DNA of 10,521 nt from a virus: UHGV virus genome UHGV-0062500, one strand, 5' to 3'. The notes beneath the pieces were generated by a model. That model saw only the letters and a list, made by a program, of their open reading frames with translations, was not told where the DNA came from and did not search any database. A program made the translations under genes and the position numbers. This document shows positions 1 to 9,821 of the stretch, one piece after another (the first letter of the stretch is position 1; every line of letters starts with the position of its first letter).

Positions 1-142
1 TTTTGGCAATGTGTTTAGACACAATACCAGCCATAAGGTCCCGTTGAGTTGGAAAAACACGAGAATCTTTATTAGCATTCTCGTTCAAAAGGTCTTTATT
101 AGTTTTATGAATCAATCCTTCAATTTCTTTTTCAATTGTCAT
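1..142 (-). CDS. nrdD: Anaerobic (class III) ribonucleoside-triphosphate reductase NrdD, N-terminal 47 codons; gene continues beyond window start
   Basis: Minus-strand ATG at 142-140 overlaps the gene 49 stop (ATGA). Translation MTIEKEIEGLIHKTNKDLLNENANKDSRVFPTQRDLMAGIVSKHIAK is open to the window edge. The LLNENANKDS-V-PTQRDL-AGIV-KH segment matches the conserved NrdD N-terminal region as I recall it, and nrdD lies downstream of 49 in T4. Confidence 0.8.
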   Translation of the reverse strand, partial: MTIEKEIEGLIHKTNKDLLNENANKDSRVFPTQRDLMAGIVSKHIAK

Positions 143-612
143 TTTAAACTCTTTCTAAGCTGCTTCTTAAATGAAGCTATTAATTGTGTTTTAGTGTCAG
201 ATTCATTATATTCAAATCCTCTTTGAAGCATCTCGGCCATCATTTCCTCTTTTCCTAAACGAGAAAATTCCTTTGATTTATCTCCAACGAAGTTAGGGTG
301 AATATTATTTTGGGTGTAATCGGATTTTAAATAAGTAAGTAAATTTTCTAACCATTCAAGATAATCAACACCTTGTCCCTTTAAGCCAGAACGATTAAAT
401 TTATGCTTCATTTGACCTTCTGCGGCATTGCAGAGATTACAAAGCAATCCACGTACCTTTCCTGCTTTTGGTCCATTTAATTCATGGTCATGGTCGAGGT
501 GATTAGCTTGAACGTCAGGATTTAGTTCTCGTTGGCAAATTAAGCATTTACCATTTTGTGCATCATAAAATTTCTGTTTTTCTTCTTTATATAATTTGCC
601 AGTCAATAACAT
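139..612 (-). CDS. 49: Endonuclease VII (Holliday-junction resolvase), 157 aa
   Basis: ATG at 612-610, TGA at 141-139. Protein carries the paired CxxC zinc site (C23/C26 in GKCLICQ, C58/C61 in LLCNLCN) and the HLDHDH block. Sequence recognised from memory as T4 gp49. Confidence 0.9.
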   Translation of the reverse strand: MLLTGKLYKEEKQKFYDAQNGKCLICQRELNPDVQANHLDHDHELNGPKAGKVRGLLCNLCNAAEGQMKHKFNRSGLKGQGVDYLEWLENLLTYLKSDYTQNNIHPNFVGDKSKEFSRLGKEEMMAEMLQRGFEYNESDTKTQLIASFKKQLRKSLK

Positions 613-619
613 AATAAAA

Positions 620-642
620 CCCTTACCTTAAATAGATAAGGG
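620..642 (-). promoter_or_regulatory. RBS-sequestering hairpin in the gene 49 leader
   Basis: Minus-strand RNA CCCUUA-(11-nt loop)-UAAGGG: 6-bp stem, 620-625 paired with 637-642. The 3' stem carries the AAGGG Shine-Dalgarno 7 nt before the ATG. Consistent with the published translational control of T4 gene 49. Confidence 0.55.
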
Positions 643-650
643 TATTTATT
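643..650 (-). promoter_or_regulatory. Candidate T4 late promoter (AATAAATA, 7/8 match to TATAAATA) abutting the hairpin
   Basis: A transcript starting about 6 nt downstream would begin inside the 5' stem and could not form the hairpin. Confidence 0.3.
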
Positions 651-651
651 A

Positions 652-704
652 TTTTCAAGTATTGTAAAACATTCGATGCAATCGTTTATACTGTCGAATC
701 ATCT
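652..704. repeat. 53-nt direct repeat, copy A (about 89% identical to 865-917)
   Basis: ttttcaagtatt[g/a]taaaacatt[c/t]gatgcaatcg[t/c]ttata[c/t]tg[t/c]cgaatcat: 47 of 53 positions identical, offset 213 nt. Covers the 3' end and stop of the 58-aa ORF. Confidence 0.8.
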
Positions 705-831
705 TTTTAGTAGGACGAGAATAGGTTCCTACGCAAGTGGTCATATGAGGGTCCGTAGAATGTCCTTTAATAAAAAGTTTCCAAACCTTACCGCCATTTA
801 ACTTTTCAGTATAAACCAATTCGGTTTTCAT
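655..831 (-). CDS. Hypothetical small protein, 58 aa (MKTELVYTEKLNGGKVWKLFIKGHSTDPHMTTCVGTYSRPTKKMIRQYKRLHRMFYNT); possibly T4 49.1-like
   Basis: Not in the ORF track (under 60 aa). ATG at 831-829 with AAGG about 8 nt upstream; TGA at 657-655. Last 15 residues duplicate the C-terminus of the upstream 161-aa protein because of a 53-nt direct repeat. Confidence 0.4.
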   Translation of the reverse strand: MKTELVYTEKLNGGKVWKLFIKGHSTDPHMTTCVGTYSRPTKKMIRQYKRLHRMFYNT

Positions 832-842
832 TAAAATGCCTT

Positions 843-864
843 GTCAGAAAAAGAATTTTGAGTT
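843..864. repeat. 22-nt exact direct repeat gtcagaaaaagaattttgagtt, copy 1 (intergenic, just downstream of the pin stop)
   Basis: Identical to 919-940, offset 76 nt. With the 53-nt repeats it gives the minus-strand arrangement X-Y-X-novel-Y. Confidence 0.8.
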
Positions 865-917
865 TTTTCAAGTATTATAAAACATTTGATGCAATCGCTT
901 ATATTGCCGAATCATTT
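865..917. repeat. 53-nt direct repeat, copy B (3' end and stop codon of pin)
   Basis: Same alignment as copy A; encodes the shared C-terminus MIRQYKRLH(Q/R)MFYNT. Confidence 0.8.
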
Positions 918-1353
918 GGTCAGAAAAAGAATTTTGAGTTTCAAGCCATTCAATATATTCTGCCGCAGCTTGCATCAGGTTACCTTCATAATCATCAATA
1001 TCTTTTTTCAATGCCACTTTAGCTAATGCATATGAAATACGTTCACCTTGAAAAGCGGCTTTAGGCTTCTGAACATCTTGGCTAGTTCTCTCTACAACTT
1101 CCTCGATTTCACCATTTTCAACGGATTCAGTATTCCACAAACACCAATACGTAATTGGCTTATCATAGATGTTAATAATTTTTCCATCAGAAAGTTCAAT
1201 TTCAATAATTCCAGTGTCAGGCTCTATATCATCTTCACATTCTTTTGCAAGTTCACGAACTTTAAAGACAGTACCTGCACTAAGTTCCGGCCAGTAATTA
1301 CACAGCCCTGTATCAGCACGATTAATTCTAAACCACTTATCTACTGTAATCAT
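868..1353 (-). CDS. pin: Probable PinA (Lon protease inhibitor), 161 aa
   Basis: Track ORF 868..1371 starts on TTG; the first ATG (1353-1351, MITVDKWF...) is preceded by GGAG and gives 161 aa, the size I recall for T4 PinA. Position between 49 and nrdC matches the T4 map. Assignment is by length and position, not by remembered sequence. Confidence 0.55.
   Translation of the reverse strand: MITVDKWFRINRADTGLCNYWPELSAGTVFKVRELAKECEDDIEPDTGIIEIELSDGKIINIYDKPITYWCLWNTESVENGEIEEVVERTSQDVQKPKAAFQGERISYALAKVALKKDIDDYEGNLMQAAAEYIEWLETQNSFSDQMIRQYKRLHQMFYNT
919..940. repeat. 22-nt exact direct repeat, copy 2 (inside the pin coding sequence, encoding ETQNSFSD)
   Basis: Exact match to 843-864. Confidence 0.8.
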
Positions 1354-1504
1354 GTCCCATCTCCATATCAATTAAGTCATTTATCGTTGGTTCATTATAT
1401 ACTGTTTCTTCATCAGTGTAAACCGGTTCTTCCGGCTCTGGCTCTACAGTTTCCCATCTAGCCGCCCACCAAGGTTTAACCCCGAAGCTTATTAAGTTCT
1501 TCAT
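1337..1504 (-). CDS. Hypothetical acidic small protein, 55 aa (MKNLISFGVKPWWAARWETVEPEPEEPVYTDEETVYNEPTINDLIDMEMGHDYSR)
   Basis: ATG at 1504-1502, TAA at 1339-1337; the 3' end overlaps the pin start by 17 nt. Not in the ORF track. Overlaps the next candidate by 29 nt in another frame, so one of the two may be spurious. Confidence 0.3.
   Translation of the reverse strand: MKNLISFGVKPWWAARWETVEPEPEEPVYTDEETVYNEPTINDLIDMEMGHDYSR
1394..1422 (-). promoter_or_regulatory. Sigma70-type early promoter upstream of pin
   Basis: Minus strand gGTTTACA-17 nt-TATAAT: -35 at 1422-1417, -10 at 1399-1394, about 40 nt upstream of the pin ATG. Confidence 0.5.
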
Positions 1505-1646
1505 AATCAATCCAGGATTCTAATCCTGATGGCAAATCAGATTCAATTTCCCAAAGAAGCTCTTCAATTTTCTGAAGACGATCTAGTTCTTCGGCTGGAA
1601 TAGTAACCATTGACGGAGCTCGTGATACATTAATATCGTAAATCAT
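1476..1646 (-). CDS. Hypothetical small protein, 56 aa (MIYDINVSRAPSMVTIPAEELDRLQKIEELLWEIESDLPSGLESWIDYEELNKLRG)
   Basis: Track ORF 1476..1733 starts on GTG and overlaps the 77-aa gene for about 100 nt. I shortened it to the internal ATG at 1646-1644, which has only a weak GGGT upstream; an alternative ATG lies at 1610-1608. TAA at 1478-1476. Confidence 0.3.
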   Translation of the reverse strand: MIYDINVSRAPSMVTIPAEELDRLQKIEELLWEIESDLPSGLESWIDYEELNKLRG

Positions 1647-1863
1647 ATTTACCCAATTTAACCATACAATCGCCGTATTTCCACTTAGAAATAGACTTTT
1701 CACCATTAGAATAATAAACTTCGAGTTTAGCACGATTATTTTTAATTTGAATAACCTTGGCTGTCATCAAAGTTCCATACCCATAATAAACTGCAACTTC
1801 ATCACCTACATATACCGCGCTTCCGCGGTAATCATGAATATAGTCAGTTCCTTCGAGCATCAT
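1630..1863 (-). CDS. Hypothetical protein, 77 aa
   Basis: ATG at 1863-1861 overlaps the nrdC stop (ATGA coupling); TAA at 1632-1630. Uninterrupted 77-codon frame. Confidence 0.6.
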   Translation of the reverse strand: MMLEGTDYIHDYRGSAVYVGDEVAVYYGYGTLMTAKVIQIKNNRAKLEVYYSNGEKSISKWKYGDCMVKLGKYDLRY

Positions 1864-2123
1864 TTAAAATATTCTCGCAGTTGGTCAAATCCACCAATAT
1901 GACTTCCATCAGGAGCAAATACCTGAGGCATTGTTAAGCCGATTTGAGTATCACGACCTAGTTTAGTCAGAAGCTCAGCAATTTTCTCATCATCAAAAAC
2001 ACCTTTTTCCGGCATAATGTTGATAAATTCAAACGGCTGTTTCTTCACAGTCAAGAGACGTTTTGCATTATCGCAATACACGCATTTGTGGATGTTGCTA
2101 TCATAACCATATACTTTAAACAT
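1860..2123 (-). CDS. nrdC: Phage glutaredoxin/thioredoxin, 87 aa
   Basis: ATG at 2123-2121 with AAGGA 5 nt upstream; TGA at 1862-1860. Active-site CVYC (C14..C17) in MFKVYGYDSNIHKCVYCDNAKRLL...; recognised from memory as T4 NrdC. Confidence 0.9.
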   Translation of the reverse strand: MFKVYGYDSNIHKCVYCDNAKRLLTVKKQPFEFINIMPEKGVFDDEKIAELLTKLGRDTQIGLTMPQVFAPDGSHIGGFDQLREYFK

Positions 2124-6565: not shown

Positions 6566-6593
6566 TTTGTATTCCTCCGTAGTTGATAGTTGT

Positions 6594-6622
6594 ATAGTAC
6601 CACAGAGGAACGGTCTTGTAAA
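6594..6622 (-). promoter_or_regulatory. Sigma70-type early promoter upstream of the 175-aa gene
   Basis: Minus strand aGTTGTTTACAa-17 nt-TGgTACTAT (extended -10): -35 at 6622-6617, -10 at 6599-6594. The flanking 24-nt and 12-nt blocks are identical to the promoter at 8729-8757. Confidence 0.6.
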
Positions 6623-6625
6623 CAA

Positions 6626-6928
6626 CTAAAAGAAACTTCTTTCACAATTTTTTCCACTGAACCAGGCGCTCACTGCTTTCTTAGTCTCAGGAGCAGTGTT
6701 ATCCATAAACCATTCAAAGGCAGCCTTTTTATGATTCTGGAGGGCTTCTCGGGCTTTAATCTGCTCACGGTCTATTAACACTAACATATGAGCCTTTCTT
6801 GTCACCAGGGGCTTTTTATGATTTTTTGAATATTCCCAATCATTTGTCCATCGCATCGTTGTTGCGAATTGAAGTACAGCTTCTTTAATCTTAGTTTCGT
6901 AAATTTCACGAGCCTTTGAGTATAACAT
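6626..6928 (-). CDS. Hypothetical protein, about 100 aa
   Basis: ATG at 6928-6926 is preceded by GGAGG (spacing 5); the track ATG at 6940 has no SD. TAG at 6628-6626. Confidence 0.6.
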   Translation of the reverse strand: MLYSKAREIYETKIKEAVLQFATTMRWTNDWEYSKNHKKPLVTRKAHMLVLIDREQIKAREALQNHKKAAFEWFMDNTAPETKKAVSAWFSGKNCERSFF

Positions 6929-8694: not shown

Positions 8695-8728
8695 TTTATT
8701 CTCCAAATCCGTATCAGTTGATAGTTGT

Positions 8729-8757
8729 ATAGTACCATAAAGCTTTATGCTTGTAAA
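8729..8757 (-). promoter_or_regulatory. Sigma70-type early promoter upstream of the ATPase gene
   Basis: Minus strand TTTACA (8757-8752) - 17 nt - TGgTACTAT (8734-8729), with an A/T-rich block upstream. Sits just downstream of the terminator, followed by the GGAG SD and ATG at 8694. Confidence 0.6.
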
Positions 8758-8777
8758 CAACTTTGTGAAAAATTTTT

Positions 8778-8806
8778 GAAATAAAAAGGGAGCCCGAAGG
8801 CTCCCT
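8778..8806 (-). terminator. Rho-independent terminator after the nucleotidyltransferase gene
   Basis: Minus-strand RNA GGGAGCC-UUCG-GGCUCCC (7-bp GC-rich stem, UUCG tetraloop) followed by UUUUUAUUUC, starting 2 nt after the TGA at 8810-8808. Confidence 0.8.
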
Positions 8807-8807
8807 A

Positions 8808-9821
8808 TCATTTATAATAACTTCGATGGTTTTCAAGATAGACCTTCTCAAGGAAGTCATCCCAGAAACTCATGTCTACTTTTTGTTGCATACCGTTCTT
8901 AGAAGCTTCAGTAGATGCTGCTTCTACTTGATCGACCACATCTTCCAAAAACTCTTGGACTGTTTTAAATGGATGTTTACCCAACTTCACGTCGAGAATA
9001 AATGGAGCATCTTGGAGTGGATAAATCAAGTCGCCAGTTTTGTAAATTTCCAATAGTTGAAGTCCACCACGACAAGCATGGCTCAGAGCTTTCCAGTCAA
9101 TACCTTCATTGGCTTCAGCCTTACGAGCACGTTCACCATATTCAGCATCTAATTTGTTCAGTGACTGCTTAAGCTCAATAAGAGAAAGCGTTGTCTGATA
9201 TTTACGACCCAACACAGTGTAGAACGTTTGTGGGCCTGTTTTCTCATGATTATGGAACACCCATTCACAGAATTCGTTTTCTGGAAGACGATGCTTAATA
9301 TCTTCAACTTTAGTGCGACGCTGCTTAATAGAACCATCTTCTTGGTAATCAACCCATTGCTCAGGGATTTGATTAACTACTTTCAATACATCACGTAATG
9401 CAGCCAAACGAGAACCCTTGACACCGTATTTAGAAGCTTGCTTACGGACATATCCTAAATATGATTTCATGTTAGTCGTATAAAAACGAGAACGGTTGTC
9501 TTGAATAAACTTCCACACATCAGGCAAATCAGATTTAACCACTAGTTCAGGTGGAGTGTGAAGCATATCTAATGCTACAGTTTCACCATCTGCTGCTAAT
9601 TTAAAGAAATATTTAAGACTGTATAGTTCATGGTCAATATCATCTTTAGTGTTTTTAGATGATGTGTTGTTAGTGTTTTTACTCATATGCTCTTTAACAT
9701 TTCCGATAAGAATATCGCGAGCAGAAGGAACAAAGATTTCTTTAAAATCTACATCAGATTCTGGGGTAGAAGTTCCATAAAGATGACTACCAAAATAGCT
9801 TTTCATTACTGTTTTCATCAT
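8808..9821 (-). CDS. Predicted Pol-beta-superfamily nucleotidyltransferase, 337 aa
   Basis: ATG at 9821-9819 overlaps the upstream TGA. N-terminal YFGSHLYGTSTPESDVDF is a canonical minimal-NTase motif (G-S-x10-D-x-D), with a candidate third acidic residue in TVALDML. C-terminal about 250 aa is helical. Intrinsic terminator immediately downstream. Confidence 0.75.
   Translation of the reverse strand: MMKTVMKSYFGSHLYGTSTPESDVDFKEIFVPSARDILIGNVKEHMSKNTNNTSSKNTKDDIDHELYSLKYFFKLAADGETVALDMLHTPPELVVKSDLPDVWKFIQDNRSRFYTTNMKSYLGYVRKQASKYGVKGSRLAALRDVLKVVNQIPEQWVDYQEDGSIKQRRTKVEDIKHRLPENEFCEWVFHNHEKTGPQTFYTVLGRKYQTTLSLIELKQSLNKLDAEYGERARKAEANEGIDWKALSHACRGGLQLLEIYKTGDLIYPLQDAPFILDVKLGKHPFKTVQEFLEDVVDQVEAASTEASKNGMQQKVDMSFWDDFLEKVYLENHRSYYK

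Follow-up and report, generated by a model that had tools for sequence, protein, structure and literature searches.

We have analyzed the junction of pin, a small open reading frame (ORF) of 58 codons (ORF58) and gene 49 in a 10,521 nucleotide (nt) stretch of the virus genome UHGV-0062500; this whole stretch is called the window here. The window is a segment of a Tequatrovirus (T4-like) genome in which all genes described around the junction lie on the minus strand. Its closest relative is Escherichia phage APTC-EC-2A, with 99.8% identity across the 841 nt around the junction. Pin161, the 161 amino acid (aa) product of pin, and ORF58 carry the same C-terminal peptide, as a first-pass annotation had already noticed. 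We hold with good confidence that the junction is best explained, overall, as a layered recombination scar. Within it, the shared peptide is almost certainly native to ORF58, and the 161-codon pin (pin161) is a deletion fusion. The genes concerned, and the segments that mark the scar, are as follows.

868 to 1353, minus strand: pin, coding for PinA (predicted Lon protease inhibitor) in its chimeric form of 161 aa, matched by PF10465 and phrog_2167; the ATG is placed as in the T4 annotation.
655 to 831, minus strand: ORF58, a 58-aa gene of DUF7279 / phrog_3272 (Pfam and PHROG matches), ending in MIRQYKRLHRMFYNT and a stop.
139 to 612, minus strand: gene 49 (endonuclease VII), the downstream neighbour, from the ORF list and the gp49 annotation in T4 and relatives.
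655 to 702, minus strand: repeat copy B', in our reading the original copy, the native ORF58 tail (MIRQYKRLHRMFYNT plus stop), from the family alignment and repeat comparison.
868 to 915, minus strand: repeat copy B, the last 15 codons and stop of pin161, in our reading the captured ORF58 tail, from the phrog_3272 match.
916 to 918, minus strand: fusion-junction codon, the last pin-derived codon before the captured tail, CAA (Q) here and CGA (R) in T4, from alignment.
919 to 941, minus strand: repeat copy A1, coding for ETQNSFSD inside the live pin, from repeat comparison.
832 to 865, minus strand: relic of a short pin (148 aa), from its 3' end, consisting of A2 (843 to 865) and AAGGCATTTTA, from alignment with the pin148 ends of NBG2 and UFV06.
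619 to 650, minus strand: gene 49 leader, with a late-promoter-like AATAAATA (650 to 643) and a 10-bp hairpin (643 to 619), from a terminator-like scan, RNA folding and alignments.

The tail is assigned to ORF58 and not to pin because profile matches, distribution and the role of the peptide in the protein all agree. ORF58 matches Pfam accession PF23945 (DUF7279) with an expected value (E) of 3e-17 and 62.7 bits (cutoff 24.5), its residues 7-56 aligning to positions 1-53 of the 53-position profile. It matches phrog_3272 with E=3e-34 over residues 1-58, the C-terminal tail included. Pin matches PF10465 (Inhibitor_I24) over residues 4-140 (E=2e-46, 157.7 bits, cutoff 27) and phrog_2167 over residues 1-146 of a 146-position profile (E=1e-62). 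Both of these models stop before residue 147 and leave the C-terminal 15 residues of Pin161, which ends in MIRQYKRLHQMFYNT and a stop, outside the Pin family domain; residues 146-161 separately match positions 43-58 of phrog_3272. Pin161 can be divided into Pin proper (residues 1-146) and a DUF7279 tail (residues 147-161). Naturally occurring Pins without the tail include 14 protein clusters of 148-aa Pins ending in SDRAF or SDRAL, and Mosigvirus Pins of 136-137 aa ending in LERRLS.

Homologues of ORF58 were found by tblastn against the phage collection in 358 phage records (360 places), and ORF58 is present at 95% or greater identity to the window copy in 117 records; a word-indexed search returned only 10 clusters and was less informative. 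In Tequatro-, Dhaka- and Mosigvirus the gene is directly followed by gene 49, while in phage S16 (Gelderlandvirus) a different ORF, not gene 49, is found downstream of the homologue. With pairwise ratios of nonsynonymous to synonymous substitution (dN/dS) of 0.08-0.32 across three genera, ORF58 is, by this measure, evolving as a real protein-coding gene. Tail residues I45, R46, K49, R50, H52, R53 and F55 are invariant in the DUF7279 family alignment, and the tail contains most of the invariant residues of the family. AlphaFold2 predicts a fold of three beta-strands and a C-terminal helix (residues 42-56), the sole helix of the protein; the best model had a pLDDT (predicted local distance difference test score) of 81.7 and the four others 52-63. 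Read base by base, the homologues end in MIRQFKRLHRSFYSTFEK (LHE83) and MIRQFKRLHRSFYNV (CLB_P2) in Dhakavirus, in MIRQYKRFHRDFYNVY (ATK48) and QLRKAKRSHRNFYNIY (Shf125875) in Mosigvirus and in LIRRYKRINRLFNF (S16) in Gelderlandvirus. In LHE83, Shf125875 and S16 the DUF7279 gene has no pin beside it and the tail is still present. A Foldseek comparison of the ORF58 model to the PDB gave no match at E<0.1, a PDB sequence search with the DUF7279 profile gave no match, and a literature search found no paper mentioning DUF7279.

These results reverse the polarity proposed in the first-pass annotation, where the 3' end of pin was the donor to the second ORF. A scheme in which a native pin 3' end was duplicated downstream, and recruited by new or inserted sequence as the C-terminus of a novel 58-aa ORF, does fit the window taken alone, where the order A-B-A-insert-B' resembles a tandem duplication plus an insertion. 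We consider it extremely unlikely, given that the tail lies within the DUF7279 models and in homologues of four genera, some without an adjacent pin, that it is missing from the Pin models and from most Pin lineages, and that an independent fusion at a different point of the tail is found in Mosigvirus ZQ3.

Two records of ORF58 itself may be mentioned here. Cluster P0008 (43 aa) is a truncated ORF58 that ends in PTKR, without the shared peptide; the truncation fits the loss of one A from the ACTAAAAAGATGA run, which brings a TGA stop just before the tail. In the APTC-EC-2A record ORF58 (395-571, homologous to 655-831 of the window) is annotated as a 'host protease inhibitor', apparently by similarity transfer via the 15-residue tail that it has in common with Pin161.

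The repeats on which the scar was first recognized are well beyond chance. The 53-nt segment at the end of pin does recur 213 nt away at the 89% identity first reported: 652-704 and 865-917 are identical at 47 of 53 positions (88.7%), ungapped and collinear, and the coding part (15 codons and the stop, 655-702 and 868-915) at 43 of 48. The exact repeat said to flank the pin copy is indeed exact and does bracket that copy of the 48-mer on both sides; its length is 23 nt, not 22 (843-865 and 919-941, spacing 76 nt). In the window, the chance expectation is 3e-10 for direct matches of at least 42/48 and 8e-6 for an exact 23-mer repeat. The longest exact repeat in 100 Markov-simulated windows had a mean length of 13.9 nt and a maximum of 19. 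Repeat B can be extended to 65 nt (638-702 and 851-915, 83%), but the extension is weak beyond the 53 nt. The A copies agree at 23/23 positions only in the sub-lineage of the window, RB33 and APTC-EC-2A, and at 22/23 in other phages of the same arrangement.

On the coding strand the structure reads pin...A1, CAA, B, a run of A's, A2, AAGGCATTTTA, the ATG and codons 1-43 of ORF58, B' and the gene 49 leader. The motif CTTGAAA stands at the end of B and again at the start of A, and the A-run at the junction varies in length (6 in the window, 7 in PYps35T). The repeats are nested and interleaved (A-B-A-C-B'), with spacings of 76 versus 213 nt and identities of 100% versus 89%, and are not the head-to-tail copies of one contiguous unit that define a simple tandem duplication. 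By alignment, the truly duplicated pin 3' end is not repeat B; it is repeat A2 plus the 11 nt AAGGCATTTTA (832-865). This 34-nt relic is noncoding, lies +1 out of frame with pin161 and keeps the TAATG stop/start overlap with ORF58 (TAA 833-831, ATG 831-829). The original view of the region as a recombination footprint holds, and the junction is polymorphic across T4-like phages.

The repeat could instead reflect two occurrences of a conserved structured RNA or regulatory element, without shared coding history, and a strong hairpin does lie just downstream of copy B'. That hairpin, which belongs to the gene 49 leader, is outside the 48-nt repeat and is not duplicated. An Rfam scan of positions 500-1100 (E<=1) gave two sub-threshold matches, in the gene 49 hairpin region only, and no family near its gathering score. 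The best match, ohsC_RNA (25.5 bits versus a gathering threshold of 50, E=0.13), spans 611-683, that is the hairpin and most of B', and misses copy B. Four of the five differences between the 48-nt copies are synonymous, which is a coding signature. We give the structured RNA explanation practically no credence; neither it nor a loss of collinearity on realignment, which had been named as grounds for rejecting the duplication, was found.

A megablast search with positions 560-1400 of the window matched 640 phage records, in discrete span classes. The comparison across T4-like genomes proposed in the first-pass annotation resolved four Tequatrovirus alleles, with ORF58 variably present. The lengths given for them run from an anchor in pin to the gene 49 leader.

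N allele, 241 nt (NBG2, UFV06): pin148 ending in SFSDRAF, its TAA overlapping the ORF58 ATG (TAATG), then ORF58 and gene 49.
T allele, 104 nt, 137 nt less than N (T4, T2, DalCa, RB14, phiD1, VEc74): pin161, without ORF58.
B allele, 72 nt, 169 nt less than N (BP32, T4_ev240): pin148, without ORF58.
W allele, 317 nt, 76 nt more than N and 213 nt more than T (the window, APTC-EC-2A, RB33, Pinarejo, PYps35T, ECO4): pin161, the relic and ORF58.
863 to 870 of the window, minus strand: proposed junction of the T-type and N-type parents of W, where the pin161 stop TGA (870-868) runs into A6 (868-863).

Relative to N the lengths add up exactly between alleles (-137, +76 and -169 nt). When 60 of the 640 records were sampled at even intervals, they comprised 11 W, 7 N, 23 T and 6 B alleles, along with 13 records from other genera, and a 31-mer spanning the W junction has an exact match in 103 phage records. 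An exact scan of IMG/VR for this junction found one contig only, and that collection was not used for allele frequencies.

On the aligned sequences the N layout is ancestral, because the outgroup has the same layout: in Dhakavirus CLB_P2 the Pin-like ORF ends in WLEAQLRFSDEVF and a stop (LRFSDEVF) and overlaps the ORF58 homologue via TGATG. This layout has a 148-aa pin (...SFSDRAF), its stop overlapping the ORF58 start, and gene 49 behind a conserved leader hairpin. Sequence comparison likewise establishes T as a fusion. A deletion of 137 nt removed the last 2 pin codons, the pin stop and codons 1-43 of ORF58 (GCATTTTA plus the codons). As 137 = 3×45+2, pin was thereby shifted into the ORF58 frame, and its in-frame fusion to the last 15 codons of ORF58 produced the 161-aa Pin of T4, T2 and others. 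Every pin161 that was read has the junction at the identical position and a Q (CAA) where DUF7279 has the invariant R53; therefore a single fusion event is indicated.

The W allele, whose anatomy is also clear from these comparisons, is likely to be a recombinant of T and N genomes, because its pin tail is nearer to the ORF58 of NBG2 than to that of its own neighbour (2/48 differences from the NBG2 ORF58 tail versus 5/48 from the adjacent one) and its ORF58 is a distinct haplotype. This haplotype (V6, H24, H29) has a synonymous divergence (dS) of 0.25-0.27 versus N-type ORF58 and is 100% conserved in 111 records. As to the exact crossover, we infer that, in a mixed infection, a T-type genome was joined unequally to a divergent N-type genome at the level of microhomology (CTTGAAA / A-run). 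Such a join would have regained an intact ORF58 behind pin161, together with the 34-nt short-pin 3' end, and would have created the nested repeats A and B. The reverse derivation, of N from W, is rejected because the necessary deletion would leave a pin ending in DKAF or DRTF: the relic reads DKAF or DRTF before its stop, and no live pin148 seen ends in either.

Several points weigh against this history. Base-by-base reading covered only about 25 loci, and the class frequencies combine the sample with record counts that include many near-identical isolates. The junction of the T deletion (CGA|ATG) has no microhomology in present-day sequences; a parent with AGA ATG, the sequence found in ATK48 or P0006, would be needed to obtain 2 nt of it. 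At the W junction there are six A's where a clean crossover at CTTGAAA would give three, so the point of crossover is not recoverable and slippage may be involved.

An entirely intragenomic route to W is unlikely, in our estimation, but accounts for part of the data. It begins with a 289-nt tandem duplication (pin148 3' end plus ORF58) in an N genome, followed by the 137-nt deletion in the first copy to give W, from which all T alleles then arise by recombination between B and B'. The identity of the A copies in the window (23/23), the W tail haplotypes carried by T-type phages and the length of the B repeats, which suffices for recombination, are all in keeping with this route. It requires three events instead of two and leaves unexplained why B is nearer to the NBG2 tail than to the adjacent B'. 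At the junction codon all W alleles that were read have CAA, but T4, T2 and DalCa still have CGA, the ancestral codon found in N-type pins. Copy A1 differs from A2 in other W members, and no genome with a double ORF58 was identified among the 358 records (360 places, the two extra places left unexamined). Gene conversion between the A copies was also considered as the cause of their 23/23 identity; it is indistinguishable from a plain I/N polymorphism, because N-variant pin148 alleles exist (P0016, P0020, P0027).

Returning to the recombinant origin of W, its repeats may themselves have been active. It had been suggested that they could mediate deletion of the intervening ORF. Natural variants without ORF58 do exist, T4 among them, and a route through B and B' is suggestive; the product expected from the A copies, a pin ending in DKAF or DRTF, was not found among the live pin alleles seen. 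Recombination between B and B' would delete ORF58 again and regenerate T-type alleles. RB14 (T) shares the pin-tail haplotype QKIRQYKRLNQ with ECO4 (W), and phiD1 (T) shares QKIRQYKRLHQ with Pinarejo (W), a pattern that suggests such exchange. The tail of VEc74 (T) is B-like on its 5' side, where it matches the window and RB33, and B'-like on its 3' side, with TAC and a TAA stop like the end of ORF58 in RB33. We lean towards the view that deletion between B and B' actually produced some of the T alleles, and we infer the direction of W/T interconversion accordingly from these tails. On the other side, gain or loss of the 213-nt segment could also result from ordinary homologous exchange between flanking sequences, and the TAA stop of VEc74 could be an independent mutation.

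Comparable events are found in Mosigvirus, where two DUF7279 paralogues flank pin in ATK48, p000v and ZQ3. The Pin of ZQ3 (141 aa) ends in the last 9 codons of the DUF7279 gene that lies downstream (ORF59), fused to it at a CGTTT microhomology, and p000v has a clean deletion at the locus. Shf125875 has lost pin via a crossover within ACTTTTATA between the tails of the two paralogues, which left a hybrid DUF7279 gene.

The variety of these endpoints bears on the possibility that ORF58 is a mobile cassette, of the homing type or of the promoter/stem-loop (PeSL) type, that inserts upstream of gene 49 with duplication of its target, the repeats being target-site or cassette-boundary repeats. Shuffling of small ORFs as cassettes in T4-type genomes was reportedly described by Arbiol et al. 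in 2010. The presence of ORF58 is patchy among closely related phages, and the gene always lies beside a stem-loop, as such a cassette would. We nevertheless find this explanation very unlikely. The alleles without ORF58 differ in their endpoints (137, 169 and 213 nt in Tequatrovirus and two others in Mosigvirus) and define no single precise empty site, and the position of the gene is syntenic in three genera. There is no endonuclease gene in or beside the 213-nt segment. The only nearby promoter-like match (9/12, plus strand, 586-615) is in the gene 49 leader, with no minus-strand promoter and no second stem-loop at the left boundary.

The Mosigvirus paralogue upstream of pin (MQVKLLY...HRNFYREY and a stop) is located at ~1896-2066 in ATK48, where it is unannotated next to pin, at 1704-1874 in p000v and at 1720-1890 in ZQ3. 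Clusters P0032 and P0035 (180-184 aa 'protease inhibitor', for example in Shigella phage ESh15; 142 member sequences) have an N-terminal stretch of ~43 residues that is the +1 frame of this unannotated paralogue; for this reason their start codon is considered to be over-extended in the annotation. In the metagenomic cluster P0037 (191 aa) the whole upstream paralogue precedes a Mosigvirus Pin as an in-frame N-terminal fusion, so that a single ORF has both Pfam domains; either a real fusion or a frameshift from sequencing could be the cause.

PinA of T4 inhibits the Lon protease of E. coli (Skorupski 1988; Hilliard 1998; both as cited in PMC8835725). The allele of the window is a putative Lon inhibitor. 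The captured tail looks like an accidental passenger and not part of the inhibitor fold, because it lies outside the Pin domain models, is missing from many natural Pins and has replacements at invariant positions. Four replacements are seen in pin161 tails (M44K, R46Q, H52N and R53Q), three of them at positions invariant in DUF7279. The presumed functional neutrality of the tail has to be set against the fact that pin161 alleles are the majority in Tequatrovirus and have R53Q fixed, which could reflect selection. The AlphaFold model of Pin161 has a pLDDT of 57.9, too poor to judge packing of the tail on the Pin fold. A PDB sequence search with Pin161 gave no match, and there is no solved PinA structure.

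A more speculative idea is that capture of the DUF7279 helix was adaptive, Lon or its partners being a host target common to Pin and DUF7279. It is hinted at by the conserved adjacency of the two genes, their translational coupling and the two DUF7279 paralogues flanking pin in Mosigvirus, and we think it improbable. If it were true, the 161-aa PinA would gain an extra contact through the basic amphipathic helix, a portable binding module tuned by the fixed R53Q, and the W arrangement would retain this module on Pin together with the free-standing protein.

The body of Pin is itself mosaic. A variable block at 1020-1060 of the window (pin residues ~112-121) reads KVALKKDIDD in one form, shared by the window and BP32, and KLAAQENNDG in the other, shared by RB33, T4 and NBG2; the two forms assort independently of tail type and of the presence of ORF58.

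The right boundary of all the rearrangements is fixed at the gene 49 leader, which begins 4 nt past the ORF58 stop, is intact in every allele type and consists of invariant alignment columns. Its hairpin (-19.7 kcal/mol, z=-3.75) covers the Shine-Dalgarno region of gene 49. A regulatory role of this leader is said to have been described by Barth et al. in 1988. Deletion endpoints probably cluster inside the ORF58 tail because the intact leader starts so soon after the stop.

At the other end of ORF58 the relic of the window has AAGG (842-839) 7 nt before the ATG, a likely ORF58 Shine-Dalgarno sequence, and the RB33 group has AGGA. In N phages ORF58 would be translationally coupled to pin; in W phages this coupling would be lost and replaced by the gene's own Shine-Dalgarno (AAGG or AGGA). 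These bases of the relic are found in no live pin148, and it is plausible that they were selected for independent initiation of ORF58.

Along the direction of transcription the series of genes around the junction starts with nrdC and continues with three small ORFs, pin, ORF58 and gene 49.

1860 to 2123, minus strand: nrdC, the start of the series.

Some features elsewhere in the window are recorded here for completeness. The ORF at 1476..1733, upstream of 49.1, matches phrog_3402 (E=1e-39), labelled 'antitoxin from a toxin-antitoxin system', and the same antitoxin annotation is present in related records. A 192-aa ORF at 7011-7589 matches only positions 228-423 of the 574-position homing-endonuclease phrog_314 (E=3e-23) and may represent a mob-type endonuclease gene that is truncated or has degenerated. 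Repeats of ~62 nt at 6581-6642 and 8716-8777, 2135 nt apart (27 nt at 93% and 28 nt at 75%, in register), each contain TTTACA-17-TACTAT on the minus strand, a promoter-like sequence that includes an extended TG; the pair probably represents T4-type early promoters ahead of blocks of small ORFs. A perfect 8-bp GC-rich palindromic stem-loop (AGGGAGCCTTCGGGCTCCCT, 8787-8806), followed by a T-run on the minus strand, lies where a nucleotidyltransferase-like ORF (8808..9821) meets its neighbour and is likely an intrinsic terminator.

To our knowledge T4 PinA is the only biochemically characterised phage Lon inhibitor, and the 161-aa form was used in all of that biochemistry. That T4 PinA is a chimera of Pin and a DUF7279 tail, and that RB33-type phages have both the chimera and the donor gene, seems to be undescribed in the literature searched; our searches on PinA and on gene 49 regulation found nothing on the pin/ORF58 junction. 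The chimera would be of use in construct design, in the interpretation of a future PinA-Lon structure and in defining a minimal inhibitor. The shared tail also explains annotation errors such as the labelling of ORF58 as a 'host protease inhibitor' in one record; another error accounted for by the locus is the extension of some Mosigvirus Pin starts through an unannotated DUF7279 gene. Taken with the parallels in the sister genus, the ancestral, fused, deleted and restored-with-scar alleles form a clean natural series that illustrates the creation and loss of small phage genes through recombination at short homologies.

Among known systems, the pin of T4 (AF158101, AAD42641; UniProt P07068) belongs to the same 161-aa chimera class, with the same junction, Q at the R53 position and a Pin body ~93% identical. 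T4 differs in having neither ORF58 nor the A2 relic, pin being followed directly by the gene 49 leader, and in a tail that reads RMIQQ... where the window has QMIRQ.... The RB33/RB32 group and APTC-EC-2A (KM607001, OK274152) have the identical arrangement of pin161, relic, ORF58 and gene 49. Only point differences separate the RB33 relic from that of the window (AGGACA versus AAGGCA), and the ORF58 stop is TAA in RB33 and APTC-EC-2A and TGA in the window. In the records of these phages ORF58 is called 'hypothetical' or, wrongly, 'host protease inhibitor'. NBG2 and UFV06 (MH243439, OP555980), with the inferred ancestral layout, have the same genes in the same order and an ORF58 that is 91-95% identical with the same tail; they differ in the 148-aa Pin (...SFSDRAF), in the overlap of its stop with the ORF58 start (TAATG) and in having no repeats. 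The ZQ3 pin141 and the hybrid DUF7279 of Shf125875 are likewise deletions ending inside a DUF7279 tail, which arose independently, with other junctions (CGTTT and ACTTTTATA), in another genus and with two DUF7279 paralogues flanking pin.

The class of mechanism is already well known in T-even phages, and no new mechanism or system is revealed here. Deletions and duplications at short homologies in T4, for example rII deletions between short direct repeats, are reportedly treated in the work of Pribnow (1981) and of Singer and Westlye (1988), and modular ORF shuffling in the 'plastic' regions of T4-type genomes in that of Arbiol, Comeau and Krisch (2010). The events at the pin locus resemble such short-homology events in their 0-9 nt of endpoint homology, their in-frame fusions and the presence/absence polymorphism of a small early ORF. 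They differ from them, and from ORF shuffling, in having no promoter/stem-loop cassette at the boundaries and in their outcome, a stable, widespread chimera carried by the type phage and a donor gene that was restored.

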